From: an uncultured Candidatus Saccharibacteria bacterium
GTDB taxonomy: Bacteria > Patescibacteriota > Saccharimonadia > CAILAD01 > BJGX01
Direction: 5' to 3'
DNA: 64,000 nt
Assembly: GCA_964552475.1 (NCBI GenBank)
Contig: CAZKFZ010000002.1
Span: forward strand, 5,316 to 69,315
A program made the translations under genes and the position numbers. Positions 3,901 to 64,000 of this stretch are shown here, piece by piece. Each line of letters begins with the position of its first letter. Position 1 is the first letter of the stretch. A model generated the notes under the pieces. That model ran no database searches. It was not told the origin of the DNA and saw nothing but the letters and a program-made list of their open reading frames with translations.

Positions 3901-4610
3901 TAGTGATCTTCTGGTTTGGTGTAGTGGGCATCACCAGTTACAACCAGCTGCAGGTCGAGTTCTTTACTGAGTTTTTTTAAACCATTGTTAACCTTTACTT
4001 GGGGTTCCCAGTCCAGGTGTGGTTGCATTTCTAAATAGTACCTATCGCGACCAAATATATCTTTATAGATTTGAGCAACTTTTTTAGCCTCTTTGTAGTT
4101 GTCGTTGTTGAGATGAGACCCTACCTCGCCACCAATACACCCAGATAGACAAATTATACCTTCATTGTATTTTTTTAATAGGTCGTGGTCTATACGGGGT
4201 TTGTAATAAAAACCCTCAAGGTTTGCTATAGTGCTAAGCTTCATTAGGTTTTTATAGCCAATAATATTTTGAGCTAACAAAATAAGGTGAAATGGATTTC
4301 GGTCTTCGGCACTATTTTTATCTAGATAAGTTCTAGGTGCTATATATGCTTCTATACCAATTATTGGCTTAATGTCTCTTTCTTTGCACGACTTGTAAAA
4401 TTCTATCGCACCAGACAAACTTCCGTGGTCGGTAATTGCGCAAGCTGTCTGACCCAACTCTTGTACATAATTTAGTAGAGAAGGTACTTTTTGCAGTCCG
4501 TCTAGTAAGCTATAGTGGGTGTGATTGTGTAAATGTACAAAATCAACAAAGCCCTTAGAATTACGGGCTTTGGTTATTATCGGATTAAGATTGTCTACAT
4601 TTACACTCAC
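960..4610 (-). CDS. dnaE: DNA polymerase III alpha subunit
   Basis: 1216 aa. N-terminal PHP domain (HLHNHTHYSLLDG ... AITDHGSLSG). Polymerase core and OB-fold follow with DnaE-typical order and length. Confidence 0.95.
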   Translation of the reverse strand: MSVNVDNLNPIITKARNSKGFVDFVHLHNHTHYSLLDGLQKVPSLLNYVQELGQTACAITDHGSLSGAIEFYKSCKERDIKPIIGIEAYIAPRTYLDKNSAEDRNPFHLILLAQNIIGYKNLMKLSTIANLEGFYYKPRIDHDLLKKYNEGIICLSGCIGGEVGSHLNNDNYKEAKKVAQIYKDIFGRDRYYLEMQPHLDWEPQVKVNNGLKKLSKELDLQLVVTGDAHYTKPEDHYPHDILLCVQTGSTIEDPNRFKLDQDLSIHSGADMLEKFSDHPEAIANTVKIAQMCDLEIELGRILIPRFPDLPEGETERSYLRKLVFSGAANRYTDVLKEDLLEITEDKVVEKLPSNVLERIEYELEVIADMGYEGYMLIVADLINWSKSQGIICGPGRGSAAGSIIAYVTNITEIDPLKYDLLFERFLNPDRISMPDIDMDYADDRREEVINYATQKYGQDRVAQIITFGTMAARNAVRDTGRVLDMPYGEVDAIAKLIPAPVQGRHIPLEKSIVDNPELKAEYQTNPKAKQVIDIATKLEGTIRNAGTHAAGVVIAPENLVEYVPLVRASKGGIATQYSMNPVEDLGLLKFDFLGLSNLTIIKNTLRILKRVYNIDLKVTDIPIDDIKTYELMSRGDTTGVFQLESAGMKRYLRELKPDKFEDIVAMGALYRPGPMQWIEDFINRKHNPDLIAYGHPKMQSALQETYGIIVYQEQVMQIAKDLCGFTGGQADTLRKGIGKKIPEVLAKMKQEFIEGAIETSQVDQKFVEDLWKSLEDFAAYSFNKSHAACYGLIAVQTAYLKAHYPAAFMAALMTSDHENLDRIAIEVSECRKMGLELLAPDINESFAEFAVVPDTQNIRFGLGAVKNVGLGPIEKILEARSDGGKFKNLEDFCSRVEATVVNKKVMESLIKCGAFDGLGDRDILLNNVEIITSYASRVQKNALSGQVDIFGSIGMDQESPPLALVAPKDKTDPRTHLMWERELLGLFISSHPLDDFNNYLNSKTQNIKNFSKSDDSKPITIGGIVIGLRQIYTRNNDPMAFVQLETIHGDVEVIVFPRVFEKDKAIWALDNVLEVKGKINARDRDGNPSDDLKVIANQAKLINHQTAKHFPPPNQTIMGNIDDQAEKVNSNKNADVIKIVITLESATESEKLLGIKKILQSHPGSTSVLLQFSGQNQQLKIPGGVECNDDFLSKLNKIVGQNNIEIKKAPTKVEAK

Positions 4611-4675
4611 AACTTTAACTCACCTCTTAGTCTTCTAAGTTGTATTATATCAGTTTTAAAATACTTGCGTTTTGA

Positions 4676-4924
4676 CTACTGAAGATTGGCAGCTTCACCA
4701 ATACTTCTAACAAACTCACCAATTAGTGGTAGTCCGCCAAGTCTTGAAACTAAAAAGCCAATTAGTAGAATTGCAATAGCCGCGCCTATAACACCCCCAA
4801 ACCCTCTCAACATCCCAACCTTAATGTTAAGCCAAGTTAACTTTCTTTGATTAGCCAGTAATTCATTTACGTGGTCTAGTCCGATTGTGTCGACAATCTT
4901 GTGTGATTTAGGGGTTTTGGACAT
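4676..4924 (-). CDS. small membrane protein (82 aa, one C-terminal TM helix)
   Basis: Hydrophobic stretch GGVIGAAIAILLIGFLVSRLGG. Abuts the YtxH-like gene. Confidence 0.5.
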   Translation of the reverse strand: MSKTPKSHKIVDTIGLDHVNELLANQRKLTWLNIKVGMLRGFGGVIGAAIAILLIGFLVSRLGGLPLIGEFVRSIGEAANLQ

Positions 4925-5431
4925 CTATTTTTTATCGGTAGGTTTCTTATTACTAGAGTAGTCTTTTTTAGCTCTTTCTTTGGCGGCCTTGGTTTTTAGT
5001 CTGCTTACTTCTTTTTGGCTCTGTTTAACAACTTTCTTAGTGCTCTTGGCAAGCTCAGATGTGAGATCTGCGGCTTTTTTAGCTAAGGCCTTGGCTTCTT
5101 CGGCGGTTACTTTACCTACTTTTTTACCACTTTTAGCTATCTCGTTACTTTGGCGCTCTAGTTGACGTTTTATATCTTCGGCTTTTTTTAAAAGTTCTTT
5201 AGTTTGATCACTTCCGGATTTTTGGGCTTCTTGTGCTTTATGGTTGAGTTCAGTATAGGCATCGTCTAGCTTACGCTTAATATCTTCTCTCGTTTCTTTA
5301 CCTGACTTAGGAGCATAGAGTAGTGCAGTGGCGCCACCTATAATACCCCCAATAATTACACCTTTAAAGAAGCCTTTTTTGTTGTCTTCGTTATTCATCG
5401 CTTTTGGCTTTCTTGGCTTTACTGCGCCCAT
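4925..5431 (-). CDS. YtxH-family protein (general stress-type, coiled-coil)
   Basis: N-terminal motif GVIIGGIIGGATALLYAPKSGKETREDI followed by Lys/Glu/Ala-rich coiled coil. True start is probably the internal Met (MNNEDNKK, about 5398), which reduces the overlap with the upstream gene. Confidence 0.7.
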   Translation of the reverse strand: MGAVKPRKPKAMNNEDNKKGFFKGVIIGGIIGGATALLYAPKSGKETREDIKRKLDDAYTELNHKAQEAQKSGSDQTKELLKKAEDIKRQLERQSNEIAKSGKKVGKVTAEEAKALAKKAADLTSELAKSTKKVVKQSQKEVSRLKTKAAKERAKKDYSSNKKPTDKK

Positions 5432-5660
5432 GCAAGTACTTTTCTATCATCATGGCAATAATACCAGGGTTAACTACGGTACGTCGTACTTCGTCTACTA
5501 GTTCAGTGGCTGAGTCGGCACTTTCTTGAACCTTTTCGGCAGCCAGCCGTATCTGCTTGAGTGCCTTAACCATTATCACCAAAAATACTACCGTATATAC
5601 AATTAAAATTATTAGTGCGATCGATGTAACAATTAATAGAGCTATTTCTACGCCATTCAT
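5391..5660 (-). CDS. DUF948-like membrane protein (89 aa)
   Basis: N-terminal TM helix then charged helix. DUF948 is commonly adjacent to YtxH genes. Confidence 0.55.
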   Translation of the reverse strand: MNGVEIALLIVTSIALIILIVYTVVFLVIMVKALKQIRLAAEKVQESADSATELVDEVRRTVVNPGIIAMMIEKYLHGRSKAKKAKSDE

Positions 5661-6280
5661 GATTTTTTGCCTTTCGTAAGTTTATGCTTTATTACTTTTA
5701 TTATATCACTTCTTTTAAGATGCGAAATAGTTATTTCGTCGCGCTCTAAAAGCGTCCACTCGTTTTTATCAACTACTGAGTTGGGTACTATATGTAAGTC
5801 GCCCTTGTTGTCTATAAGTCGAGTCTTCTTGGTGTCCATTTCTACTATATAGCCTTCTTGACGCATATCGCTATCACCCACAATTACTTTATCACCCACT
5901 CTAAAATCGTGATCGTTAGCTAATTGAATACCCGAGACCAAATCTGAAACCGTCTGTGTAAAGCCTTGGGATATACCTATAGAAAGCGCGGCAATAAAAC
6001 CTGTAAGTGCAAAGGCAATGTTTGTGAGCCCAAGTATTTGTAATATTCCAATAGCAAGCAGGGCCCACAATCCACCGCGAGCCAAAATTATCAAGATCTC
6101 TTTTAACCCGAGTGAAATATGAAAGTAGTCAATAAATCTAGACAGCAATCTCATTAATAGTCTAACCACTAAAATACCGATAACTACAAAAACTATACCT
6201 CGTCCAATTCGGGGCAAAGCCTGTACAATGGATTGCCACATTTCATTAAAGCTACTTAACAAATCAGACTCGAACAGCAT
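5657..6280 (-). CDS. small-conductance mechanosensitive channel (MscS family, short form)
   Basis: Three N-terminal TM helices followed by the MscS beta-domain region (DHDFRVGDKVIVGD ... GYIVEMDTKKTRL). Confidence 0.7.
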   Translation of the reverse strand: MLFESDLLSSFNEMWQSIVQALPRIGRGIVFVVIGILVVRLLMRLLSRFIDYFHISLGLKEILIILARGGLWALLAIGILQILGLTNIAFALTGFIAALSIGISQGFTQTVSDLVSGIQLANDHDFRVGDKVIVGDSDMRQEGYIVEMDTKKTRLIDNKGDLHIVPNSVVDKNEWTLLERDEITISHLKRSDIIKVIKHKLTKGKKS

Positions 6281-6312
6281 TACCTATAACTTTCTTGATT
6301 AAGATTACTAAT

Positions 6313-7758
6313 TTAGACAGATTGTTCTTCTAATAATTTAAGCACAAGCTCGTTGGCTTTGCCAGGGTTTGCCTGCCCTTTTGTAGCCTGCATTACTTGC
6401 CCCACAAAGAAGCCTGCTGCTTTGGCATTACCGTTTCGATAGTCAGCCAAAGCATTTGGGTTTTTTGAAATCAAATCGCGCACAATACTCTCTAGTTCTG
6501 TGTTATCGGAAATCTGTACAAGTCCTTGTTGCTCTACAATTTGCTTTGGCCGAGAGCCGTCAATCACATTTGCAAAAATACTCTTGGCGGTCTTAGACGA
6601 TATATCACCTTTTTGGATTAATTCAATAAGCTCAGCCAGATTTTCGCCAGTCAGTTTTGAGCTTTCTTCGCTATTTTCTGAAATCCAAGCCTGGTAGTCG
6701 CCAGTAAGCCAATTGATAATTTTTTTGTCTTTCTCAGGCTTGTTGCCAAGTAGCTTACTTGCCTTAAAAAATATTTTTCCAGTTGTATTTTGACTTACAA
6801 AAATATCTTGAGAATCTACATTAATACCAAGTTCAACAAGGTTTCTTCTTATTTGAATAGGCATTACTAAATCTGTTAAATGCGACTGTATATCTTCTAC
6901 AAATTCTGGCTTTAGTTTGAGTGGTGGGATATCTGGCTCTGGAAAATAGCGGTAATCATGCGCATGTTCTTTCCCGCGTTGGCTAAAAGTTTTACCTTTG
7001 CCATCATCCCAACCACGTGTTTCTTGGTCGACTTTTCCACCCGATTCGATAACCTCAATTTGTCGCTTGATTTCATAAGTTAGAGCGCGCTCAGCATTTC
7101 TAAAAGAATTGAGATTTTTTAGTTCCGTGCGAGTACCAAGCTCATCGTTATTACTTACTGAAATATTTAAATCAAACTTAAAATTACCATGTTGTAAGTC
7201 GCCATGAGTAACTCCAAGGGTGGTGGCGATTGCATAAACCTCTTGCAGGTACCTTTTTGCTTCAATTGGCGAATGCATTTCTGGCTCGCTGACTATTTCA
7301 ATAAGTGGTGTACCAGCTCTATTAAAGTCAACCAAGCTATAGTCTTTACCTACGGGATGGGTGAGTTTTCCGGCATCTTCTTCTAGATGTGCATGGTGAA
7401 TACCAATTTTTCTAAACTCTCCATCTACTAGAATTTCTACATAACCTTTTTGAATGATTGGTTCCTCCATTTGGGTTATTTGATAACCCTTGGGCGAGTC
7501 AGGATAAAAATAGTTTTTTCTATCAAAGCTAGTATTTTCGGCAATTTTGGCGTTTAGGCCCTTGCCTAGCTTTATGGCTAACTCTACCGCACCTTTATTG
7601 GGTACTGGTAAGACACCTGGTAGTGCTAAGCAAACTGGGCAAATATTAGTGTTGGGTTCTGACCCTACACTATGGTTGTCGCACGCACAAAACATTTTAC
7701 TTTTAGTAGCAAGCTGAGTGTGAATTTCTATTCCGATAGTTGGAGTATATTTTGTCAT
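6313..7758 (-). CDS. gatB: Asp-tRNA(Asn)/Glu-tRNA(Gln) amidotransferase subunit B
   Basis: N-terminus TIGIEIHTQL ... MFCACDN ... NICPVCLALPG and C-terminal GatB/YqeY domain. 481 aa. Confidence 0.95.
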   Translation of the reverse strand: MTKYTPTIGIEIHTQLATKSKMFCACDNHSVGSEPNTNICPVCLALPGVLPVPNKGAVELAIKLGKGLNAKIAENTSFDRKNYFYPDSPKGYQITQMEEPIIQKGYVEILVDGEFRKIGIHHAHLEEDAGKLTHPVGKDYSLVDFNRAGTPLIEIVSEPEMHSPIEAKRYLQEVYAIATTLGVTHGDLQHGNFKFDLNISVSNNDELGTRTELKNLNSFRNAERALTYEIKRQIEVIESGGKVDQETRGWDDGKGKTFSQRGKEHAHDYRYFPEPDIPPLKLKPEFVEDIQSHLTDLVMPIQIRRNLVELGINVDSQDIFVSQNTTGKIFFKASKLLGNKPEKDKKIINWLTGDYQAWISENSEESSKLTGENLAELIELIQKGDISSKTAKSIFANVIDGSRPKQIVEQQGLVQISDNTELESIVRDLISKNPNALADYRNGNAKAAGFFVGQVMQATKGQANPGKANELVLKLLEEQSV

Positions 7759-8251: not shown

Positions 8252-9678
8252 AGTTTAATCTCCTCTAATTTTAAATGCCAACTTGTTTTCGACTGAAACT
8301 CACTCGCCAGAGCTAAGACCTTTTTGTCTGCTTTTTGTTGACCGATTATTTGAATACCCAGAGGCATATTAGTCTCGCTATCTATGCCGGCTGGAATACT
8401 TATAGCTGGTAAGCCGGCAAGATTTGCGGTTACGGTAAGTAGATCGGTCTTGTACATCTCTAACGGATCACTTTTAGCTCCAAACTCAAAGGCCGGCTGG
8501 AAAGTAGTGGGCATCACTATGAGATCGCAGTCTTTAAATATTTTGTCAAACTGTTCACAGACGAGTTGTCGCACCTGCATAGCTTTTTTGTAGTAGGCAT
8601 CATAATAACCAGAAGAAAGTGCATAAGTACCTATTAAGATACGGCGCTTAACTTCATCTCCTAAAAATTCTGCACGGGTTTTAGAATAAAGTTCAGAAGT
8701 ATTTTTCGCGACTTTATTAACCTGGCCATAGCGAATGCCATCGTATCTTTCTAGATTGGAACTAATTTCTGAAGGCACTAAAACATAGTATGCACTCAAA
8801 GCCAAAACGCTATCAACCATCTCTATTTCGCTCGCTTCAATATCTAGAGTGTTGGTCAACTCTTTTACTGTTGTTTGTTTTATGTAGTCCTTTGGGATAC
8901 CAATTCTCATGCTATTTACGGCAGAGTGATCTTCTGACGCATTTAGTGTGCTTAGTGTAGTGGCGTCCATTGGGTCTTGCCCAGAAATAACGTCTAGAAC
9001 AATTTGAGCATCGTCAGCTGACCTAGTAATTGGACCAATACAATCAAAGCTACTTGCCATTGCAATGACACCATATCTACTAACTCTACCATAGGTTGGC
9101 TTTAAGCCTGTTACTCCACAAAAAGCCGCTGGCTCTCGAATAGATCCACCGGTGTCGGTGCCGAGGCTAAAAACACAATAGTCTGCTGCTACTGCTGCAG
9201 CGCTACCACCACTACTACCGCCAGGAACTCTATTGATGTTCCAGGGGTTGGTGGTTTTAGCAAAGCTAGAGTTTTCGGTACTACCGCCGTGGGCAAATTC
9301 ATCTTGGTTGGTTTTGGCAAGTAGAATAGCTCCGGCCTCGTTTAGACTATTAATGACTGTTGCAGAATATGGAGGTATATAGCCTTTAAGTATTTGGCTA
9401 GCTGCAGTAGTCTGTACTCCTTTGGTAGAAAACATGTCTTTAGCTGTATACGGTATGCCTTCGAGCAAACCAATCTCTTCGCCAGCAGCAATCTTGTCGT
9501 CAATCTTTTTGGCTTGTACATTTGCATCGTCGCCACACAACGTAATAACTGCTTTGATCTGCGGCTCATGCTTTTCAATTCTGTCGAGGTAATATTTTAC
9601 GAGATCAACACAACTCACCCTTTTTGTTATTAATAGTTCGTGAGCTTGTCTTATGGATAAAAGCGACAAATTAGTCAT
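8248..9678 (-). CDS. gatA: Glu-tRNA(Gln) amidotransferase subunit A
   Basis: Amidase signature GGSSGGSAAAVAA. 476 aa. Lies between gatC and gatB. Confidence 0.95.
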   Translation of the reverse strand: MTNLSLLSIRQAHELLITKRVSCVDLVKYYLDRIEKHEPQIKAVITLCGDDANVQAKKIDDKIAAGEEIGLLEGIPYTAKDMFSTKGVQTTAASQILKGYIPPYSATVINSLNEAGAILLAKTNQDEFAHGGSTENSSFAKTTNPWNINRVPGGSSGGSAAAVAADYCVFSLGTDTGGSIREPAAFCGVTGLKPTYGRVSRYGVIAMASSFDCIGPITRSADDAQIVLDVISGQDPMDATTLSTLNASEDHSAVNSMRIGIPKDYIKQTTVKELTNTLDIEASEIEMVDSVLALSAYYVLVPSEISSNLERYDGIRYGQVNKVAKNTSELYSKTRAEFLGDEVKRRILIGTYALSSGYYDAYYKKAMQVRQLVCEQFDKIFKDCDLIVMPTTFQPAFEFGAKSDPLEMYKTDLLTVTANLAGLPAISIPAGIDSETNMPLGIQIIGQQKADKKVLALASEFQSKTSWHLKLEEIKL

Positions 9679-10530: not shown

Positions 10531-13250
<2,720 letters not shown>

Positions 13251-13282
13251 AATAACTACTCCTTTTGCCTATTATATTACAT

Positions 13283-14188
13283 TTAAGCATGAGTGCCCAT
13301 CTGGCGTAAGCGTTTAATGCGCTCAGCGGTTGGCGGATGAGTGCTAAATAGACCCGAAAACCAGCTCTTTTTACTACCTTCTACATTTGCTCGCAGAGGA
13401 TTTACTATGTACAAATTAGATGTTGCTCTATTGGCTGCTTCAAGTGGCTCGGTACTACTCTCTATCTTTTCTAGGGCACTAGCCAAGCCTTCTGGATAGC
13501 GAGTAAGAAGAGCGGCAGAGCTATCTGCTAAATATTCGCGTTTGCGTGAAAAAGCTAGTTGCATAAGCATACCAATAATAGGCACTAGTATTGCCAATAC
13601 CAAGCTTACCAACATCATTATGCCCTGCATACTACCACCACCACTATCTCTATCGTCAGAAAATATTGTTATACGTATAAACCAATCAGACAATAAAACC
13701 AAAACCCCTACTAGAACTACCACTAGAGTCATAAATCGTACATCGTAGTTGCCGACATGACTGAGCTCATGCGCAATTACACCTTCAAGCTCTGCCTTGT
13801 TCATAATATCTATCAAGCCAGAGGTAACGCATATTACAGCGTGCTTGGGGTCACGACCAGTAGCAAAAGCATTGGGGGCGGAGTCTTGAATAATATATAT
13901 TTTAGGTACAGGCAGACCTGACGAAATACAAAGATTTTCTACAGTTCTATATAGCTTGGGGTTGTCTTTTTTTTCAATTTGTTTGGCTTTTGAAATGGCT
14001 AGTACTGTTTTACTAGCAGTAAAGTAGCTTATTAGTGCATATATTGTTGAGAATGCTACACCTAAATATAAAATTGCGGGTTCGTTGTAGGCAAGCGAAA
14101 TTACCCAGCAAAATCCTATTATCACCAATAAAAAACAAAAAATTAAAAAAATACTATTACGTTTGTTTTTGGCTATCTCGCTATACAT
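13283..14188 (-). CDS. htpX: M48-family zinc metalloprotease HtpX
   Basis: HELSHV zinc-binding motif (VIAHELSHVGNYD). TM helices flank the catalytic domain. Confidence 0.9.
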   Translation of the reverse strand: MYSEIAKNKRNSIFLIFCFLLVIIGFCWVISLAYNEPAILYLGVAFSTIYALISYFTASKTVLAISKAKQIEKKDNPKLYRTVENLCISSGLPVPKIYIIQDSAPNAFATGRDPKHAVICVTSGLIDIMNKAELEGVIAHELSHVGNYDVRFMTLVVVLVGVLVLLSDWFIRITIFSDDRDSGGGSMQGIMMLVSLVLAILVPIIGMLMQLAFSRKREYLADSSAALLTRYPEGLASALEKIESSTEPLEAANRATSNLYIVNPLRANVEGSKKSWFSGLFSTHPPTAERIKRLRQMGTHA

Positions 14189-51975: not shown

Positions 51976-52047
51976 ATTATTTCCTTAGGTTCGCTTGTCA
52001 TTGTCTAGACAAGATCTGAAGATATTTTACAGTATTTTCGTAAAAAC

Positions 52048-52086
52048 TCAAGCATAAGTAAAACCCCTCACCATTTCGGTGAGGGG
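52048..52086. repeat. 39-nt hairpin-containing repeat, copy 2 (terminator of the ABC exporter gene)
   Basis: tcaagcatAagtaaaacccctcaccatttcggtgagggg. Confidence 0.8.
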
Positions 52087-52095
52087 TGGGGTGAT

Positions 52096-53880
52096 CTAAA
52101 CTAGCCCTCCGCTCATTTCTAAGTCTCGGAGTCGCTTGTAAAGACCATTATGTCGTTCTAGTTCGGCATGGGTGCCAATCTCGGCAATCTCGCCATGCTC
52201 TAGTACAACCACGGTGTCGGCCATCTCGATAGTCGAGAAGCGATGTGCAATAATCACAATTGTGCACTCTCGACGCGCAATTAGTAATTCAATACTACGT
52301 TGCACCTCAGCTTGGGAGATGGCATCTAACGCACTAGTAGCTTCGTCGAGCACCAAAAGCTTTGGCCTCTTAATAAGCGCACGGGCAATAGCGAGTCTTT
52401 GTATTTGACCGCCACTTAAACGAATACCGTCTTGGCCAACAATCGTGTCATAACCATCAACGAGTTCGGTGATGATAAACTCATGAATATCAGCGCGCTT
52501 GGCAGCCTCTATTACATCGGCATCGGTAGCGTATGGGCTGCCTAAGCGAATGTTATCGGCAATACTAGCATCAAAAAGTTGTACTTTTTGGCTTACTACC
52601 GAAACAGTTTTTTTGCGATATTGCTCAAAATCTAGTTGTGGTAGAGGGTTTTCGTCGAAGTATATTGACCCTTCTGTTGGGTCAAACTCCCTAAGTAGCA
52701 AGCTAGCTACAGTAGACTTGCCCGACCCAGAAGGGCCAACAAGCGCAATTGCTTGGTGTGGTTTAATAGTCAGATTTATGTTCTTAAGAGCATGCTCTTC
52801 ACTATCATCGTAGGCAAAGCTAACATCACTCAATTGAATTGCGCCAGTCAAACTATCTACCGCAATAGGTTCGTCTGCTTGTTCTACGGCAGGTTTGGTT
52901 TGCAGCATCTCGGCAAGTTCGTGCAGAGCTTCTTCGCCCTCATTTTTGTAACGCTGAAAATGCACGAACTGATACAAGTTGCTATAAATCTTTTCAAGCC
53001 AAGCAATCACCAAGAAAATCTCGCCAAGCGAAATTTGACCTTGCATGAACTGCCAGGCCAAAAAGCCATACAGCGATGCTCTACTAAAAGACACTACAGC
53101 ATCTTGCATACGAACATCGCGAAGCCAGCTATCAAAGCGCAAGCGCTCGGCATCTACATAAGCATCGAGCATAGAAATGTACCCTCGGCTCTGATCTCGC
53201 TCTAGGCCAAATTGCTTAATTGTGCGCCAGTTGGTAATTTGCTCGCTACCACAGCGGTTAAATGCTTTGTCTTCGGCATGAGCTTGTTGCCTACTAGGCT
53301 CGTAACGACGTTCTGTTCTGGTGGCCGCAATCGTATAAACAATTGCCGTACCAGCCGAAAACAGGGTGTATTGCCAGCCAATAAAGAGTAGTCCAAAGCT
53401 TACACACACCACTCGCATAGTTGCTGGTAGAGCCTCAAAGATCAACTCATCGGTTAGTCTATCGATCTTACGAATGTTTTTACTTAAGACCGACTCTTTC
53501 TCGCCAGTTGAATGACGAGAATGCCAATTAACATCTAATAGTAATAGGTGTTGGTGACTATAGCCCAGAATTGTCATGTAGTTAAGCCACATAGCCCAAA
53601 TACGAAAATGATCCATTCGCAAGTAAAGCATCGAGCCTGCCAGATATACTACTAGAATTACCAAAGCAATTTCTAGCATATAGCTAAATGGCTGGCCGGA
53701 TGTGAGGCCATCAATAAACGACTTAGCCGGGTAAATCTGAGCAATCACTACTGCCTCAACAATAGCTAGCCAGATAAAGGCTTTTATTGATAGACTTTTT
53801 AGTTTTAACAGGTTGGCTTTGGCACCGTCTTCTTGCAAAAGTGCCGTATATAACGCCTTGTAGCTTCTAAAGCTTTTCAC
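52096..53880 (-). CDS. ABC transporter, fused permease/ATP-binding (MsbA-like exporter)
   Basis: 6 TM N-half. Walker A GPSGSGKST. ABC signature LSGGQIQRLAIARAL. Walker B LLVLDEATSALD. 594 aa. Confidence 0.9.
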   Translation of the reverse strand: MKSFRSYKALYTALLQEDGAKANLLKLKSLSIKAFIWLAIVEAVVIAQIYPAKSFIDGLTSGQPFSYMLEIALVILVVYLAGSMLYLRMDHFRIWAMWLNYMTILGYSHQHLLLLDVNWHSRHSTGEKESVLSKNIRKIDRLTDELIFEALPATMRVVCVSFGLLFIGWQYTLFSAGTAIVYTIAATRTERRYEPSRQQAHAEDKAFNRCGSEQITNWRTIKQFGLERDQSRGYISMLDAYVDAERLRFDSWLRDVRMQDAVVSFSRASLYGFLAWQFMQGQISLGEIFLVIAWLEKIYSNLYQFVHFQRYKNEGEEALHELAEMLQTKPAVEQADEPIAVDSLTGAIQLSDVSFAYDDSEEHALKNINLTIKPHQAIALVGPSGSGKSTVASLLLREFDPTEGSIYFDENPLPQLDFEQYRKKTVSVVSQKVQLFDASIADNIRLGSPYATDADVIEAAKRADIHEFIITELVDGYDTIVGQDGIRLSGGQIQRLAIARALIKRPKLLVLDEATSALDAISQAEVQRSIELLIARRECTIVIIAHRFSTIEMADTVVVLEHGEIAEIGTHAELERHNGLYKRLRDLEMSGGLV

Positions 53881-54527
53881 AAGCGTCCTTTCTGTTGATA
53901 TTTAAGGTACAGGGATGGTACTTTTTTGGGCGTTTATTCGCCAATCAAAAAAGCTCGAGGTTTTTCGTATTCCCGAGCTCTGTCGATTACAAATAAATGC
54001 TTAAATCATATAACTCGGGAATGGCATGCACTAACCGCACCAGTTTGGACTGGGTTTTGTGCAAAACGTATTAATTTGGTTGCTATGGTGTTCATAGTGT
54101 TAGTTATACTACCGTATAGCTTAAGCACTGTCAAGCCCTTATGCTTACTTTTTAAAAAAATGTTAAGTTATAAGGTGAAACAGAAAGATCCGAGTTGTTT
54201 GAGCGAAAACTTCGCTAAAAGTGTTGGCAATAAGCTATTAATGTCTTATTCGCCAAAGAATGTGTTTCGGACCTTTTTGCATAACCTTATATGGTTAAAA
54301 AGTATTTTAAATCGATATTTACCTGGCCCCTGCAACAGATGAGTTCGTGTGCAAAGAAATATTGATAAAAGTAGTATAGCACAGGCAAGTGTTAATGTCA
54401 ATAGCCATTACGTTTAGTTAGGTTTTCTCGTTTCGTCTTGTAGAGTTTGAGCTCTAAGACTCATCAGACAAAATACTTATTTTGTGACGAGGGCCGGTGG
54501 AGAGGAACTCTCCACCGGCCAAAAAAA

Positions 54528-54833
54528 CTAGACCAAAGGCCTCAAGAAGCCCTTTCGGTCCCGAGTGTTGAAAAATCCTTCTCGGGAAGAGTAGCTTCCA
54601 TCGACTTTCCTGAATCTCGCGGTAAAGATCCAGTTGTTGCCAGAGCCGTCTTCGGCGGCCAGCGACATGATCTGAGCTTCACACTTGATTTCAGGTACCT
54701 TACGGGTACCGGAGACACGAACACTGCTCTCGAGTGTGAACTCGACCTTGCGAAACTCATCGAAGAGTCGCAGAGCATCGAAGAGCTCTTCACGCGACGG
54801 GCCATGGGTGATCTGGACAGTGCTAGTAGTCAT
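54528..54833 (-). CDS. small hypothetical protein (102 aa) in a GC-rich islet
   Basis: Good RBS (aaagaaagg) 7 nt before the ATG of MTTSTVQITHGPSREELFDAL.... Local GC is clearly higher than the flanks (by eye). The competing plus-strand ORF 54447..54896 is Arg/Ser-rich and looks spurious. Confidence 0.5.
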   Translation of the reverse strand: MTTSTVQITHGPSREELFDALRLFDEFRKVEFTLESSVRVSGTRKVPEIKCEAQIMSLAAEDGSGNNWIFTARFRKVDGSYSSREGFFNTRDRKGFLRPLV

Positions 54834-54989
54834 ACGACTACCTTTCTTTTTCAATATCTCCCGATGGCGGAGAGACGACGCCGTTACCTGGTTTAGACCC
54901 AAGCCACTCCTTCATACGAAGAAGAATTACAGCTATTCTATCATGCATTTTGCTATTTGTCAATACTTTTTAACAATTTATTTGTATAT

Positions 54990-55028
54990 ATAAAAAACCC
55001 GTATCTTATTACAGATACGGGTTGGTTT
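54990..55028 (-). terminator. rho-independent terminator of the 55029..56360 gene (bidirectional-looking)
   Basis: Hairpin aacccgtatct-tattaca-agatacgggtt directly after the stop. T-run on the minus strand and also T-run on the plus strand. Confidence 0.7.
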
Positions 55029-56360
55029 TTAACCGCGAGCGTACGGCTTACACACTCTTGCTTTGAGATTTCGCCACCGCAAGTGGATAGTGCGATGCTG
55101 CTTGGGCAAAGCATCTAGCCGAGCCGGCAACGCCTTGTTGGTTTCGCAGCTAAGCAACTCTAGCTCTTTGAACAGAGCTTCTTTATCAATAGTCTTGAAG
55201 TTGGGATCTCTCTCGCGACGAGATTTACCAACCCAACTAAAGAAGTCACCAGTAGAGTCTTTTAGGAACCCAAATGCTGTAGCGATACCAAACATGATTA
55301 GTGCCAACCCAAGTAGTGCCAACATAAAAGCTGGTACCACTAGCGGAGCAAGCAAATAGAACTCAAGTGGTAGGTTCCAAGTATTACCATGGTCTAGAAC
55401 AGCTAGAGCAACTACACCAACAAGAACGAATGGTGGGAAGATTGTGGCTGTAGCAAATAACCTAACAGCATCGCTAGGCTTGTCTAGGTCGTCAATGTCG
55501 TACTTGCTCCTACCTCGCTTATTGGTCCAGAAAATACTGCCGCCACCTGGCGAACAAGTCTTACTAACAGGACGAATATCTACGTCTCGCCAAAACTGCG
55601 CGGAGGTAGCTAGGGGGTTAAATAGCTTGCGCCACTTAACAGAGCGAATGCCAAACATGGCAAAGCCAAAGCCCGCCACAGACTTCACAAGGGTGTGAAA
55701 CAATATAGCTAGGGGTGACAAAAGCCACAAACCCCAACGCTTACGTCGGCCGCAGTCGTTAGGGCCTTTGCTACCCACCCCAAACAGCCTAAGCATGTTC
55801 ACAAGAGCTTTGGAGGGCTCTTTGGCAAACATCTCGTCTGGTACTACTACATCTAGTCTGGTTTCTACGCCAACACTACTAATTTGATAGGTTTCGTACA
55901 GATCACGAAACTTTAGTGGTGAGTCGTAATCAAATACGCTATTCTCGTAACTACCATTACGACGAGGCTTATCTAGCAAGTCACGATGCAGACGAGCAAT
56001 TTGCTCTGGCGTATCGCCATGCACAATTGTGGCCATTACCGTATTGGTGTCACGGCACACAAATTCAACAAACTCGGCTTCTTGCTGTAGCGGCACTAGC
56101 AAACGCTGCTCGTAAGCCATTTCTGCGCCATATCCATAGTCCCGAATCCTACCAATTACAATCAAAACGTACGGGTTGGTGACGTTTTGGTTCTTTAGTA
56201 GTTCAATTAGCTCTGGCGTAACACACCAGCGCAACATTGTAGCAGAATCTGCTCTGCCTTCAGGATCAACATCTACCTTAAGGCCCAAGTCAATGTCGAC
56301 TGGACTTTCAATAGTACTCATATTTAACTCCTTAGGTGCTCTTGTCTCTACCTGAGACAA
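55029..56360 (-). CDS. hypothetical membrane protein (443 aa) with moderately elevated GC
   Basis: N-terminal soluble domain then about 5 TM helices. No motif recognised. Confidence 0.6.
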   Translation of the reverse strand: MSQVETRAPKELNMSTIESPVDIDLGLKVDVDPEGRADSATMLRWCVTPELIELLKNQNVTNPYVLIVIGRIRDYGYGAEMAYEQRLLVPLQQEAEFVEFVCRDTNTVMATIVHGDTPEQIARLHRDLLDKPRRNGSYENSVFDYDSPLKFRDLYETYQISSVGVETRLDVVVPDEMFAKEPSKALVNMLRLFGVGSKGPNDCGRRKRWGLWLLSPLAILFHTLVKSVAGFGFAMFGIRSVKWRKLFNPLATSAQFWRDVDIRPVSKTCSPGGGSIFWTNKRGRSKYDIDDLDKPSDAVRLFATATIFPPFVLVGVVALAVLDHGNTWNLPLEFYLLAPLVVPAFMLALLGLALIMFGIATAFGFLKDSTGDFFSWVGKSRRERDPNFKTIDKEALFKELELLSCETNKALPARLDALPKQHRTIHLRWRNLKARVCKPYARG

Positions 56361-56461
56361 AACTTATACGATTATACATTTTTAGGGCTATTTTGCAAGC
56401 ATAAGAAATACAAAAAACCACCTTACTGGTGGCCTCTATGATTCTACTAATCTTTCAATCT

Positions 56462-57085
56462 TTAATAGGTCTTGGCCTGCAACTCATCTACCCTTTCCAC
56501 TATCATGCCACAAATATCTTTTACCGACTCTTTGTAGCGCTTGGGAGTGACTTTGATTGTAGGTTCAAAAAGTGGATATACTTTGTCTTGGGTTTCTATA
56601 AGTTTGCGTTTTTGCTTGCCAAGATCTACATCGCCAAGAGTACGAAGGTTGTGCATTCTATCAGCCAATTTACAAACCGCGGCCCGCCAATCTCCAGTTC
56701 GCAGTAGTCTATTCCAATAGTCGTCACCTACTAGACCATCTTCTTTGGTCATATACTTTACCCCCATGGCTACCTCGTGCCCAAAATTTATCTCTAGTCG
56801 TTTGGGGCGCATAATAAACGAGTCTTCAATCATGTCGTGTAAGAGTGCAATGCAAATAAGCTGCCAATCGTATATGTGCAGTTCATCAAATATCATCCAG
56901 GCGACTGCCCTAGGGTGTTCAAAATACCTTAGGCCGTTGGCACGCTTTTGCCCTCTATGAGCATATTTACTAAAAAAATATGCGGCCTCTATGTCTTCCA
57001 TCTCGGTCTCAGAAAAATAGGGTCGCAATGCATTCATAAACTCCATGCGGTTAATTTTGGGGTATGAATCTACTTTTTTGGTCAT
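56462..57085 (-). CDS. HD-domain (p)ppGpp hydrolase (RelA/SpoT-type HD, small alarmone hydrolase-like)
   Basis: HD motif HRGQKRANGLRYFEHPRAVA ... LLHDMIED. Start set at MTKKVD, which has an RBS (aagaaaagaaggg). The track ORF extends 26 codons further. Confidence 0.8.
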   Translation of the reverse strand: MTKKVDSYPKINRMEFMNALRPYFSETEMEDIEAAYFFSKYAHRGQKRANGLRYFEHPRAVAWMIFDELHIYDWQLICIALLHDMIEDSFIMRPKRLEINFGHEVAMGVKYMTKEDGLVGDDYWNRLLRTGDWRAAVCKLADRMHNLRTLGDVDLGKQKRKLIETQDKVYPLFEPTIKVTPKRYKESVKDICGMIVERVDELQAKTY

Positions 57086-60631: not shown

Positions 60632-60697
60632 AATTGGTTTTTTATTTTATCATTATGCTATAATGTGGTTAGAATAAATTAATAAGGAGTCTATATT

Positions 60698-61099
60698 ATG
60701 GCAAGTAAAAATAATGAAGTAACAGGTTGGGCTGGCTGGGCAGCTTTTGCCGGTCTACTAATGGTTTTAGCAGGCTTTTTCCAGGTACTAGTTGGAATAA
60801 GTGCAATTGTTAGAAATACTGTATATTTTGTTGGTCCGTACAACATTCTATCGGTAGATATTGCAAATTGGGGATGGCTACACCTTCTATTGGCAATACT
60901 TTTACTAGGTGCTGGTCTTTCAGTACTAAAAGGTAATGCTTATGGTAGAGTTGTGGGTGTAATCTTGGCTGCAATAAGTGCAGTTGTAAACATGGCCTTT
61001 ATCCCTGCTTACCCCGTATGGTCTATACTAGTAATGGTAGTAGATATTGTAATTATCTACGCTCTAGTAGTACATGGTGGCGAACTAGGCGAAGCCTAA
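60698..61099 (+). CDS. small four-TM membrane protein (133 aa)
   Basis: Good RBS (aaggag) upstream. Followed by a terminator. Confidence 0.6.
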   Translation: MASKNNEVTGWAGWAAFAGLLMVLAGFFQVLVGISAIVRNTVYFVGPYNILSVDIANWGWLHLLLAILLLGAGLSVLKGNAYGRVVGVILAAISAVVNMAFIPAYPVWSILVMVVDIVIIYALVVHGGELGEA

Positions 61100-61123
61100 T
61101 AGCTTACTATATAGAAACTTTAA

Positions 61124-61157
61124 AAATACTCCTTTTTAAGTAAAGGAGTATTTTTTG
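61124..61157 (+). terminator. rho-independent terminator
   Basis: Hairpin aatactccttt-ttaag-taaaggagtatt followed by ttttt. Confidence 0.75.
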
Positions 61158-61160
61158 TAT

Positions 61161-61199
61161 AAAAAAAAGGGGGGTGATAGTCTTTCGACTATCACCCCC
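61161..61199 (-). terminator. perfect 13-bp GC hairpin with minus-strand T-run (terminator-like), left boundary of the GC-rich end segment
   Basis: gggggtgatagtc-tttc-gactatcaccccc preceded on the plus strand by aaaaaaaa. Confidence 0.6.
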
Positions 61200-61839
61200 A
61201 TGTTCTGGGGCGTAGGCCGTTGGGCAACCCTAGAACGGGGTACTACTGAATTGCAAAAATTAGCATAATTTAAGGTGGACCAAACATGTGCTCTACATTC
61301 AGCTAGGCTGAAACTACTAGTAGACCACTACATTGGCTTTGTCGCGGCAGCCACTGGCCACCACCTAGGATTTCTCCACCAAACGAGCTTTGCTTTCTTA
61401 CTGTCCAGGTAAGAAAACTTATGCGTTGCTTGCAGCCGCGCCGCAGGTCGCTAACCTGCATTTATTTACTCACCACTCGGTGGCGAGCTCTTTACACCGT
61501 CCAGCCTGCAATACTGGAGTCAAAACCCTCAAATCAACACGATATTCGATCGGGTTAAATTGAGTATGGTCTTTGCGGCGCCCCATCTTGTCTCTCAGGG
61601 GTGAGAGCTCTCTTAAAAGTATTTTTTCACTTTTTAAGAGAGTCCACTTTGTCAGCTAAATTTTAAAATGTGCCGACTTGGTGGTTATTACTGATATCTT
61701 TTCTAAGGTACAATCCGAGCTCAGTCTTCCCTGGTCCTCTCGGTCGAACCAGCATAGTAGAAGTATTATAGCATAGTAGTACAAGAATTGCAAGGGTTTT
61801 TTATTACTTTTTTTAAGTATTTAGTTTGTAATAAAAATA

Positions 61840-61883
61840 GCCTGAATGGTAAAGGCCCCGCCTCTCATAAGAGAGGCGGGGCC
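61840..61883 (-). terminator. perfect 13-bp GC hairpin, terminator of the 61926..62276 gene
   Basis: ggccccgcctctc-ataa-gagaggcggggcc. On the minus strand it is followed by a T-rich tract. Confidence 0.6.
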
Positions 61884-61925
61884 TGGTGCTACCTTGGTGA
61901 GGTAGTCTTTAATCCTTGCGAGGGA

Positions 61926-62276
61926 TTAGTTGGAGGAGGCTAGTGAGCCTCGCACGTACTTACGGCCACGCCAGCCGAGTGCCTTGCGAGCCAGCTGGAT
62001 GGCAGCGAACGCTTCGGCGTTGGTGTTGGCAACGATGCTGAAGCGATCCTGACCACCGTCACCGGGCTGCTTCCAGCCGGCCTCTGGAGTGAGGTGCTTG
62101 GCCATCTTGGCGGCAGCCTTAGGCGAGCTAGGCTCTACCCGCACCCGCATTCGCTCGATGCCGAGCTCACGGAACCCCACCCGGCCACGTCGACTGGTGT
62201 GGGTCACCTGGTACTCACCGGTACCCTCGGTACCCGCCATGTAGAGCGAGTTGGCCTGCTTGGTACTTGCGGTCAT
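61926..62276 (-). CDS. hypothetical protein (116 aa), GC-rich
   Basis: ORF in the high-GC segment. 4-nt overlap with the upstream phosphatase gene. No motif recognised. Confidence 0.55.
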   Translation of the reverse strand: MTASTKQANSLYMAGTEGTGEYQVTHTSRRGRVGFRELGIERMRVRVEPSSPKAAAKMAKHLTPEAGWKQPGDGGQDRFSIVANTNAEAFAAIQLARKALGWRGRKYVRGSLASSN

Positions 62277-62830
62277 TTTTGACCCTTTCTGTTGTTGGGA
62301 GTTGGCCGCGGGGTGAATTCCTCGCGGTATTTCTGGGGTACTTCTTGGCTGCGCAGAGCAAAGATGCCCTCAACCTGCGCGATTGTCTCAACGGCGTGGC
62401 CACAGTGACGAAGACGTACCGCCAAGACAGGATCTGGTGTATCCTCTTCGCTCTCAAGAAGAGCAATGAGAGATGCCAGAAATGTACCTGTACGACCATG
62501 TGAGGCCGAACAATAAGCCAGCATGGTGTCGCCAGCCACAAGGCGTGGCACCACCAATCTCTCTAGCTTGTATCGCCAATCGCTTGGCACACCACCGAAG
62601 TCAGGCAACTCGAGCTCGGTGAGCTCATCCTGATCATCGTAAAGGTGCTTCTCGTCAATTAGCCTGCCATTGAGAGTGACTATCACGTCAAACTCGTCGA
62701 GGTTGGCCGGAAGGGCATACATTGTCCCCCAAGCTCCTACCTCAAACTCGCCAACTCTTACTAGTCCACCTCTATGTTCTTGGTGTACGCGAGCCACTTC
62801 TGGGCCCGCGCTTGAATGAGCTTCGCTCAT
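62273..62830 (-). CDS. dual-specificity / PTEN-like protein phosphatase (CX5R)
   Basis: P-loop YCSASHGRTG (compare PTEN HCKAGKGRTG). Candidate general-acid Asp in PDFGGVPSD about 30 residues upstream. 185 aa. Confidence 0.75.
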   Translation of the reverse strand: MSEAHSSAGPEVARVHQEHRGGLVRVGEFEVGAWGTMYALPANLDEFDVIVTLNGRLIDEKHLYDDQDELTELELPDFGGVPSDWRYKLERLVVPRLVAGDTMLAYCSASHGRTGTFLASLIALLESEEDTPDPVLAVRLRHCGHAVETIAQVEGIFALRSQEVPQKYREEFTPRPTPNNRKGQK

Positions 62831-62867
62831 TTAGGCTCCTTACCTAAGTCGCGGCAAAAGCAGGGGC

Positions 62868-63974
62868 TCACCAGAGCCCCTGCTTTACACCTTTGTCGAA
62901 TAGGGCCTGTACCCGAGGGTCAAAGCCATAATCTTTCAGTCCATTATGCAGACTGGTTACTCCGGTAACGTTTTTCTTGATCTCGAGCTGTTGGTCGATT
63001 CCTCGACCACCATAGCCCCTAGACGTTTCATGAACAATGCGGTGCTTGTTGAACAGCACCCCACCGTTATGACGAAGATCCCACACGTGATCAACAAACG
63101 CAACCAGTGGCAACTCTTTGCTTAGGTACCGTGCCAATGTTCTGGCAATATCGGCCCAAAGCTTACCACCCATTGACCCCCACCACTTGCCAAACTCAAA
63201 CACATCGCCGATAAGCGACGCGTACTGAGCTTGTTCAAGGAGGGAGTGGCCTTTAAGGCCGGTACTCCTATTCCACATCTCATCGCGTTGATTCGACATA
63301 GTGAAATTAAAGGAGGTACGTAGCTTCTGCATGGCTGCATCGGCTTTGGGCGTTTTGTACGGATTGTCGTAATACCGCACCTCGCCAGTAATAGCGATTG
63401 CCAGGTAAGTAGCTAATAGCTCGGCCACGTTTGCCTGAACGTCTCGCTGCAACTTAAACGCTTCTGCCTCAAGCGAGCTACCTTTAGCCGCGCGGGCCAT
63501 GGCATCGCTTAGGTAGAAGTCATTAAGAAGTTGGTTGGCGGTATGCGATTCACTCATCCGCTCAAATGCCAGATGTGGTTCTGGTGTGGCAAACAGAGAA
63601 TGCCAGCGCAAGAAGATATTGGCCTCCTTGGTGAGATCCACCGACGTAGTCGGCAACTCGCCTCGGTAAACCAATCCGCTAGTGCCGTTGACCGACACCA
63701 CCTCTCCAGGCTCTAGGCTACTCAGATCGAACTGAGCACCCACTACAGCCGGCAGACCTATTCCACGGGCCACTACAGCAGCATGACAAGTAGCTCCACC
63801 AACACTGGTTACGACGGCCGAAGCCGCCAATAGTCCTGGTAGATCATCGGGGTTGGTATCTGGACGAACCAGAATTGCCTTGGTACCCGATGCAGCAATC
63901 GCTTGTGCCCCGTTAGAGGTATGAGCAACCACTCCTGTCACGCAACCAGGTGAAGCTGGCAAACCCTCAGCCAA
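62868..63974 (-). CDS. PEP-utilising-enzyme mobile (phosphohistidine swivel) domain protein with unrecognised C-terminal domain; 5' end probably beyond the window
   Basis: VGGATCHAAVVARGIGLPAVVG is the conserved phospho-His swivel motif. The following roughly 250 aa match no domain I recognise. The reading frame stays open to the window edge. Confidence 0.7.
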   Translation of the reverse strand: MAEGLPASPGCVTGVVAHTSNGAQAIAASGTKAILVRPDTNPDDLPGLLAASAVVTSVGGATCHAAVVARGIGLPAVVGAQFDLSSLEPGEVVSVNGTSGLVYRGELPTTSVDLTKEANIFLRWHSLFATPEPHLAFERMSESHTANQLLNDFYLSDAMARAAKGSSLEAEAFKLQRDVQANVAELLATYLAIAITGEVRYYDNPYKTPKADAAMQKLRTSFNFTMSNQRDEMWNRSTGLKGHSLLEQAQYASLIGDVFEFGKWWGSMGGKLWADIARTLARYLSKELPLVAFVDHVWDLRHNGGVLFNKHRIVHETSRGYGGRGIDQQLEIKKNVTGVTSLHNGLKDYGFDPRVQALFDKGVKQGLW

Positions 63975-64000
63975 CAGTCGCCCCTCGGCCTTGGCTTGCG

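Follow-up and report, generated by a model that had tools for sequence, protein, structure and literature searches.

The window analysed here, 64,000 nt of a contig from an uncultured Candidatus Saccharibacteria bacterium, ends in a GC-rich island that carries three minus-strand genes. These encode KIN-X, a protein with the phosphohistidine swivel domain of dikinases, a Cys-dependent phosphatase (PTP) and a 116-aa protein (P116). On balance, the island is probably a horizontally acquired, self-contained phosphoryl-transfer system and not a pyruvate or phosphoenolpyruvate (PEP) enzyme. The system is mobile: it occurs fused in bacteria, including lineages of the Candidate Phyla Radiation (CPR), and split into separate genes in phages.

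Domain structure of KIN-X

The part of the KIN-X gene lying in the window (62868 to 64000, minus strand) comprises 376 codons and the stop; the reading frame stays open at the window end, that is, it runs off the window. An earlier reading of the bare sequence (the original prediction) had assigned to this protein the swivel (mobile) domain of PEP-utilising enzymes, an assignment confirmed by a strong match to PF00391 (positions 63675 to 63881, minus strand; E = 4.2e-22, 78 bits vs. a cutoff of 23.1). The swivel motif of the window protein reads GGATCHAAVVARG. Codon 63783-63785 of the minus strand specifies the catalytic His of GGATCH, and the active site is intact.

The complete gene was found in a scan of GTDB genomes, which yielded a syntenic 12.4-kb contig (CAYZYH010000020.1, hereafter L014) from a metagenome-assembled genome of uncultured Saccharibacteria with approximately 87% DNA identity over 7 kb. 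When a single protein was used as query, the scan returned L014 and a further locus (L015) only. L014:3002-5179 encodes a KIN-X protein of 725 aa, 91% identical to the part present in the window and composed of a PPDK_N ATP-grasp domain, the His swivel and a C-terminal domain, X. The N-terminal ATP-grasp/PPDK_N domain expected in the original prediction is thus present in the orthologue; it aligns to residues 5-350 of pyruvate phosphate dikinase (PPDK), and it is present also in the homologues P0002 and P0023. Residues 8-486 of L014 KIN-X align with residues 5-532 of Clostridium symbiosum PPDK (E = 2e-100), a span that takes in the ATP-grasp nucleotide domain, the swivel with its GG.T.H motif and the post-swivel linker. 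Identity to the C. symbiosum enzyme over residues 1-486, linker included, is about 40%. Beyond residue 486 there is no alignment. PF02896, the PEP/pyruvate TIM barrel, was absent from the window protein at E <= 1, and the NCBIfam models of PPDK and PEP synthase (PEPS) gave 113 and 82 bits vs. cutoffs of 456-843. These comparisons indicate that the ATP-grasp and phosphohistidine swivel of a PPDK-type dikinase are complete in KIN-X, and that the TIM barrel is swapped for X at the same junction.

Domain X (62871 to 63623, minus strand) is a predicted all-alpha domain of about 250 aa at the position of the TIM barrel. The claim that these residues are unlike the barrel of PEP-utilisers was upheld: no match was found in Pfam or the PDB by profile or sequence search, and no fold relative was found in the PDB. 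In BFVD the sole matches were unannotated phage homologues. The AlphaFold model of the last 251 aa, computed from a 12-sequence alignment, is entirely helical (pLDDT 85, pTM 0.85). The invariant residues of X, among them the polar E, R, D, H, N and K, fall into the patterns FY, Y..A...E.R, GG..W..IA and D....L.HN.G..F.K, which is what one would expect of a catalytic or ligand-binding pocket. A HMMER scan of 1.84 billion representatives with the X profile gave 254 matches at E <= 1e-30 and 3632 at E <= 1e-3; the profile took in a few swivel-derived columns, so the low-significance counts are possibly inflated. Most of the best 150 matches are ATP-grasp-swivel-X fusions of 700-800 aa with X at the C-terminus. 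Two giant proteins have X copies with all motifs and no kinase, P0087 (2263 aa, L021:3165-9956) with three copies and P0148 (1926 aa) with two; they sit on a 123-kb contig of nearly all unannotated genes.

Exchange of the third domain has parallels. Rifampin phosphotransferase and PigC/RedH, among other dikinases, retain ATP-grasp and swivel as their engine and have exchanged the third domain to serve a new acceptor; the swivel match of these families to KIN-X is weak. Phage thymidine hypermodification employs a P-loop kinase for 5-hydroxymethyldeoxyuridine (5-hmdU) in DNA together with aGPT-Pplase or amino-acid:DNA transferase (AADT), so that base hypermodification is activated by a kinase (PMC8989533). 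It resembles the system described here in combining a phage kinase with an alpha-helical partner beside nucleotide-metabolism genes, and activation by phosphorylation is a possible common logic. The kinase there is of the P-loop type, however, and AADT has a helix-hairpin-helix glycosylase-like fold and an essential Cys (in a Cys-Glu pair). X has neither, and it gave no match to the Pfam aGPT family.

Partners of KIN-X in bacteria and phages

The PTP gene (62273 to 62830, minus strand) is separated from the KIN-X gene by a 37-nt gap (62831-62867) and shares a 4-nt ATGA overlap (62273-62276) with the start of the P116 gene (61926 to 62276, minus strand). Both the gap and the overlap are as originally described.

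PTP is a 185-aa protein assigned to the protein tyrosine phosphatase/dual-specificity phosphatase (DSP) superfamily. The predicted CX5R signature YCSASHGRTG is present, with the loop C107-S-A-S-H-G-R113 and the Cys codon at 62510-62512. Across 13 homologues D77, C107, G112, R113, T114 and G115 are invariant, and D77, which stands in a (P)DFGGVP motif, would be the general acid of the upstream loop. Against curated Pfam the window protein matched Tc-R-P and PTP-SAK weakly (E-values 0.01-0.03; 16.8 and 15 bits vs. a cutoff of 27), and phage homologues passed the cutoff (39.5 bits for that of Ares1). A profile of the family matched archaeal Tk-PTP, SsoPTP and DUSP23 in the PDB at about 4e-15. PTEN-like Ci-VSP was matched at 1e-6 only, and the C2 domain is absent from the 185 aa. 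The label 'PTEN-like' used in the original prediction is therefore imprecise, and by its sequence relatives the enzyme should rather be named a small atypical DSP/PTP. With Tk-PTP, SsoPTP, DUSP23/VHZ and the PTP-SAK/Tc-R-P families it shares the CX5R P-loop, the upstream Asp and a length of about 150-190 aa. It differs from the archaeal enzymes and DUSP23 in having an additional conserved C-terminal element (VR....C..AVET..Q), whose VR...AVET..Q residues are invariant in the 13 homologues, and a conserved N-terminal segment, and in its obligate linkage to a dikinase.

P116 belongs to no family and has no Pfam or PDB sequence match; homologues lie beside KIN-X and PTP elsewhere. It was aligned by hhalign to the C-terminal approximately 110 aa of phage proteins of phrog_25950 (E = 1.7e-4, probability 50%). 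In the joint alignment a Tyr, an Arg and a Ser are invariant and a GT pair is near-invariant. P116 is thus probably homologous to the C-terminal end of the phage proteins. Should this homology hold, the four modules and their order would be common to bacteria and phages. The model of P116 is ferredoxin-like (PII-, RRM- or Cas2-like), with low confidence (pLDDT 58). A GC-rich hairpin with a perfect 14-bp stem (61852 to 61885, minus strand) follows 41 nt 3' of the P116 stop, has a matching inverted repeat at L014:6161-6192 and is probably the terminator or an attenuator of the operon.

The complete set of KIN-X, PTP and P116 is present in the window, L014, L016-18, L019, L023, L025 and L026/27; the trio is conserved in at least seven independent bacterial loci. 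Genomic context in bacteria was inspected for eight fused-kinase proteins. PTP lies directly 3' of the fused kinase in Candidatus Kaiserbacteria (L016-18), L019, L023, L025 (a 6.7-Mb genome), L026/27, L020 and the contig of P0034; the latter contig has two PTPs, and L020 has one on either side of the kinase. In L016-18 a P116 homologue was detected by profile search upstream of the module. Kinase and phosphatase are adjacent in at least eight bacterial loci and linked in all phage loci examined, and in P0138 (935 aa) kinase, X and phosphatase form a single protein. This fusion and the conservation of the operon indicate that KIN-X, phosphatase and P116 are constant partners. PPDK and PEPS come without phosphatase and P116 partners, whereas KIN-X was always partnered, the Obscuribacteraceae locus, in which the fused kinase stands alone, apart. 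The suggestion that the two enzymes form a linked phospho-transfer or phospho-removal unit agrees with these data, but the pairing is not an unusual one as had been thought; it is a widespread conserved system that includes P116.

The carriers identified are Saccharibacteria, Kaiserbacteria, Obscuribacteraceae (Melainabacteria), metagenome bins, the 6.7-Mb genome and phages. Window KIN-X is 42-58% identical to the fused bacterial forms, the nearest relative being P0035 (58%), vs. about 22% to the phage forms. None of the defence models of PADLOC-DB 2.0 matched KIN-X, PTP, P116 or their neighbours at E <= 0.1, and nothing was found in the literature on the function of family members.

Nine KIN-X homologues of 900-1030 aa (P0040, P0045, P0057, P0065, P0079, P0099, P0106, P0130 and P0131) carry C-terminal tails of 140-320 aa, which are strings of signature motifs: the MIDAS motif D.SGSM, G.PG.GK[ST] (Walker A) with [IL]FIDE[IL] (Walker B), HE..H, GDIHGD, GHTH, 'HVFEMVINTNP' and 'N.YA..ASDGDNF'. 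By Pfam and BLAST these motifs are weakly tied to AAA, DUF444/YeaH and SpoVR/YcgB, i.e. the PrkA(YeaG)-YeaH-SpoVR trio. The tails hint at recognition of protein motifs in part of the family; window KIN-X has no such tail. In two loci a cytidylyltransferase-like protein adjoins the module, as a HIT fusion in L020 (2833-4086) and as a stand-alone 163-aa gene directly upstream in the P0034 contig, and this may hint at a nucleotide-linked type of substrate.

The phage form was found by tblastn against GenBank phages and by a scan of IMG/VR. Here X stands by itself as a protein of about 340 aa (phrog_20946), encoded by Vibrio siphophages (Ares1, VHS1-like), Stenotrophomonas phage DLP_5 and eight viral contigs. 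The order of the cassette is PPDK-like kinase (615-710 aa), PTP1, X, PTP2, the phrog_25950 protein (about 270-300 aa) and DNA polymerase A. This order was seen in DLP_5 and in all eight viral contigs, and in Ares1 apart from the missing PTP2. DNA ligase, MazG or ThyX lies upstream of every cassette and DNA polymerase A on the other side. In one locus the DNA polymerase A gene beside the cassette (L008:10750-13989) contains an intein (Intein_splicing, 9.5e-10).

Several phage components carry misleading names. The kinase is called 'pyruvate phosphate dikinase' in databases though it lacks the pyruvate barrel, and the Vibrio phage gene has been treated as a PPDK and carbon auxiliary metabolic gene (PMC12038007). 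In DLP_5 (L002) the products of 9035-9505 and 10560-11348 bear the names 'thymidylate synthase' and 'thymidylate synthase ThyX', and phrog_17568 is likewise labelled thymidylate synthase. Judged by their Pfam matches (Tc-R-P, PTP-SAK), these proteins are DSP-type Cys phosphatases and the names are database mis-annotations.

Composition and origin of the island

In 1-kb windows the GC content was 0.35-0.47 over positions 1-61000, and 0.561 and 0.538 in the final two kilobases. In 200-nt windows it was 0.52-0.66 from 61900 to the window end, with a lesser rise (0.48-0.52) at 61200-61600. The block 61926-64000 has a GC content of 0.552, vs. 0.399 ± 0.018 (maximum 0.463) in 2-kb background windows (z = 8.6), and its tetranucleotide distance to the remaining window corresponds to z = 14.2. 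The GC content at third codon positions (GC3) is 0.52, 0.51 and 0.74 in the three island genes, vs. 0.25-0.36 in the adjoining native genes; the compositional shift is therefore an effect at synonymous sites and not at the amino acid level. These calculations bear out the GC jump near the window end, the foreign composition and the shift toward G/C-ending codons that had been noticed by eye. The GC-rich coding segment had been placed at 61161-64000. This is correct for 61926-64000, whereas 61161-61926 is non-coding and contains terminators and the candidate structured RNA described below. Elsewhere in the window a mild rise in GC (0.42-0.47 over the background of 0.40) was seen at 52001-57000, and the most deviant background tetranucleotide window lies at about 51.5 kb.

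The junction between low-GC and high-GC DNA is not an assembly chimera, because short Logan contigs (about 1 kb) of two unrelated sequencing runs match the window with 100% identity over 60697-61759 and 61338-62429. In an exact-sequence look-up the 185-aa phosphatase was without record, and P116 and the neighbouring DUF7144 protein were present solely on 1-kb Logan contigs. Between the window and L014 dN/dS was 0.14 for KIN-X, 0.21 for PTP and 0.13 for P116: all three genes are intact and under purifying selection.

In L014 the island (3002-6905) is flanked by a low-GC amino-acid kinase gene on one side and the low-GC DUF7144 gene on the other. No phage or mobility genes, integrase, transposase or flanking direct repeats were found in it. 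A prophage origin was considered and rejected, since low-GC housekeeping genes border the island on either side and it holds no phage genes. Divergence between the window and L014 is equal inside and outside the island, with dS the same as in the flanking genes, so that acquisition predates the split of the two lineages. The locus of the module, and with it the surrounding set of housekeeping genes, differs from genome to genome, which argues for a repeatedly transferred cassette. The nearest relative, P0035, lies in a 63%-GC island of another, 44%-GC genome. A foreign, horizontally acquired island is supported by these observations. In metagenomes, an empty site was sought by means of the flanking amino-acid-kinase gene; the search gave relatives of at most 39% identity only, with no module or DUF7144 nearby. 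A second GC-rich block (0.62) is present at L014:1-1000, separated from the island by the lone low-GC amino-acid-kinase gene. It contains a 265-aa open reading frame without Pfam or PADLOC match and would fall about 3-6 kb past the window end; this may be a hotspot region for foreign DNA.

Two other accounts of the composition were weighed. Saccharibacteria live on Actinobacteria, and the island is GC-rich at synonymous sites; the original prediction had accordingly proposed transfer from a high-GC actinobacterial host to its epibiont. This donor is very unlikely. The homologues that can be named belong to CPR bacteria, Melainabacteria and phages, and the transfer is older than the split of the two Saccharibacteria lineages. 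The GC-rich island in a 44%-GC genome that holds the nearest relative also speaks against it, as does the GC3 of about 0.52 in the two large genes, which would be far under typical actinobacterial values, a difference that amelioration could blur. No homologue was assignable to Actinobacteria, which is a weak test since most homologues are metagenomic proteins without taxon, and the proposal is therefore unsupported rather than disproved. Alternatively, the GC excess could be an intrinsic, selected property (mRNA or RNA structure, or expression level) of an ancestral module that was never transferred. In several unrelated hosts the module is indeed GC-richer than its flanks (by 0.15 in the window, 0.14 in L019, 0.17 in L023 and 0.08 in L025), and it has been inherited vertically since the window/L014 split without visible amelioration. 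However, the difference is close to 0 in L016, L020, L026 and L015. The patchy spread over distant phyla and phages, the change of locus and of housekeeping neighbours from genome to genome, the tetranucleotide deviation (z = 14) and the second, unrelated GC-rich block about 2 kb off in L014 make this explanation quite improbable too. Homologues with the same synteny in low-GC CPR relatives had been named as an argument against transfer. Such synteny does exist, in Kaiserbacteria and a second Saccharibacteria lineage, but it does not refute transfer: because the module is still GC-rich in low-GC relatives, the shared synteny points to a mobile cassette.

A candidate structured RNA and the proposed acceptor of the phosphate

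Downstream (3') of the three genes, positions 61165 to 61793 of the minus strand specify a candidate for a structured non-coding RNA, about 600 nt long. The promoter/terminator scan gave it a promoter-like site of its own (61793-61765, minus strand) and a strong intrinsic terminator (61199-61170, minus strand), and no credible open reading frame was present in 61100-61926. The 596 nt between promoter and terminator had a folding z of -8.4 on the minus strand vs. -5.2 on the plus strand. The counterpart in L014 lies at 6280-6905. A core of 163 nt (61330-61492, minus strand) is 93-96% identical to it and exceeds the coding flanks in conservation. Among 149 predicted pairs 8 showed compensatory double changes and 8 one-sided changes between the window and L014, and none was broken.

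A covariance model built from the window and L014 gave three further matches, all on the module strand: L023:12439-12591, L023:13447-13618 and L016:5907-5975. L023 is the genome with the closest KIN-X, and both of its copies lie in a gene-poor stretch of about 3 kb (11200-14000) with 52-54% GC downstream of the module. The copy in the Kaiserbacteria locus L016 is reduced and situated 33 nt upstream of the KIN-X start. The matches share a CUAG-[9-bp stem]-GAC hairpin (61341-61368, minus strand, in the window) with compensatory changes in the stem and the loop AGU or UACG. In the five-sequence alignment 95.5% of the cells pair, vs. 78.5 ± 2.2% in shuffled alignments and 33-52% with slid partners, and 28 of the 49 pairs have double changes vs. 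11.7 ± 2.5 in the shuffles; because the alignment was fitted to the covariance model, these figures are biased toward the structure. L019 and L025 gave no more than marginal same-strand matches, in gaps without genes that adjoin the module. The hairpin pattern was not found in the viral contigs. Rfam gave no family at gathering thresholds, and a search at E <= 1 gave chance-like sub-threshold matches, several of them over terminator hairpins. We regard 61165-61793 as a real structured RNA; its link to the module proteins is suggestive.

By analogy with the mechanism of PPDK, PEPS and glucan, water dikinase (GWD), ATP would pyrophosphorylate the swivel His of KIN-X, and the gamma-phosphate would then go to water or Pi. 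The swivel would carry the His~P to X, which would bind the acceptor and catalyse the transfer. The phosphatase would later strip that phosphate, thereby resetting the system or processing an intermediate, and P116 would act as adaptor, ligand-binding subunit or target. A precedent for such a cycle is provided by the plant dikinases GWD and PWD with the DSP glucan phosphatases SEX4 and LSF2, which phosphorylate and then dephosphorylate the starch polymer. To our knowledge, this is the only well-known case of a His-swivel dikinase functionally paired with DSP-family Cys phosphatases. The likeness extends to the two DSP paralogues of the phage cassettes. In contrast to GWD and PWD, no carbohydrate-binding modules were detected here, the acceptor domain is unrelated, and the context is replication genes (phages) or housekeeping genes (bacteria) and not glycan metabolism.

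Tentatively, the acceptor may be a hydroxyl of nucleic-acid or nucleotide type, for which the structured RNA encoded beside the module is a candidate. This is favoured because the phage cassette always lies among replication genes, because the module is accompanied by the structured RNA in three lineages, because two loci have the nucleotidyltransferase-HIT neighbour, and because the low-confidence model of P116 is ferredoxin-like. RNA-directed DSP phosphatases exist, which fits the same acceptor. A Ser, Thr or Tyr of P116 is a possible, though doubtful, acceptor; it was considered because of the invariant Tyr and Ser and the near-invariant Thr, the translational coupling to a phosphatase whose nearest relatives are protein phosphatases, and the homologue tails. 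Some other acceptor, e.g. a glycan or a small molecule, is doubtful to the same degree. In the most specific form of the proposal, the module would be a mobile RNA-protein system in which X phosphorylates the roughly 600-nt RNA of the module itself or, in the phage case, nucleic acid that is replicating or belongs to the host, with P116 as an RNA-binding specificity subunit and the phosphatase as the eraser. In all these details together it is unlikely to be right.

Several observations weigh against a phosphoryl-transfer system with X as acceptor domain and a nucleic-acid target. The nearest solved relatives of the phosphatase are protein phosphatases, and the Ser-rich motif tails of some homologues likewise speak for a protein as substrate. 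No convincing copy of the RNA was seen next to the module in L015, L019, L020, L026 or the phage loci, and because of this it may be a passenger rather than a component. The phage KIN is a protein distinct from X and has its own poorly conserved tail of about 190 aa, which shows no relation to X. The role of X as acceptor domain is assigned from its position and invariant residues alone, and its occurrence without a fused dikinase in P0087 and P0148 may point to a kinase-independent role. The fold assignment of P116 depends on a model with a pLDDT of 58.

Three different functions were compared with that system. An ordinary PPDK or PEP synthase, acting as a central-carbon auxiliary metabolic gene, would agree with the identity of about 40% in the ATP-grasp and swivel and with the names in GenBank and NCBIfam style, which PMC12038007 follows for the Vibrio phage gene. 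It is highly improbable nevertheless, given the missing TIM barrel, the NCBIfam scores far below cutoff, and a PDB alignment that ends at residue 486 of 725, where an all-alpha domain without known relative takes over. A reversible protein-phosphorylation switch, in which KIN-X phosphorylates P116 on the invariant Tyr or Ser or the near-invariant Thr and the dual-specificity phosphatase erases the mark, appears rather unlikely. It would resemble partner-switching modules and PII modification in its triad of kinase, phosphatase and small substrate. P116 constantly accompanies the two enzymes, its translation is coupled to that of the phosphatase, and Tyr, Arg, Ser and, nearly so, GT are preserved over bacterial and phage forms; the closest solved phosphatase relatives act on proteins, the Ser/Thr-containing motif tails of some homologues could be tethered substrates, and the P116 model resembles PII-like proteins. 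On the other hand, we know of no His-swivel dikinase that phosphorylates a protein side chain except in the phosphotransferase system (PTS). The switch has no evident output domain, and it explains neither the associated RNA nor why the phage cassette lies among replication genes.

The third is a phage-derived pathway of DNA or nucleotide modification, in which the PPDK-type kinase would replace the 5-hmdU DNA kinase of P-loop logic, X would be the transferase, and the Saccharibacteria copy would be domesticated or a remnant. Every phage cassette does have ThyX, MazG or DNA ligase on one side and DNA polymerase A on the other, and kinase-activated base hypermodification has a precedent (PMC8989533). 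The pathway is improbable, since the bacterial loci have no hydroxymethylase, restriction partner or phage genes, window KIN-X falls with the fused proteins of bacteria (42-58%) and not with those of phages (about 22%), and searches of the literature turned up no account of modified DNA in these phages.

Small as a family and famous for their mechanism, the His-swivel dikinases have roles in C4 photosynthesis, gluconeogenesis, starch turnover and rifampicin resistance. The island would be a member of a large unstudied branch of this family, with hundreds of 50%-identity clusters and a new acceptor domain. The system spans minimal-genome CPR symbionts, Melainabacteria and large genomes, and is split into genes in cultured Vibrio and Stenotrophomonas phages, in whose literature its components are misread as carbon-metabolism 'PPDK', 'thymidylate synthase' and 'ThyX'. 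As culturable phages carry it, its function is approachable by genetics and biochemistry, and the co-travelling structured RNA is a concrete candidate for a substrate or regulator. If the proposal of a mobile RNA-protein system is true, it would mean a new nucleic-acid phosphorylation chemistry common to CPR bacteria and phages, together with a new class of large structured RNA. For the Saccharibacteria, the island would represent a selected, horizontally acquired module (dN/dS 0.13-0.21) in a genome that is otherwise strongly reduced.

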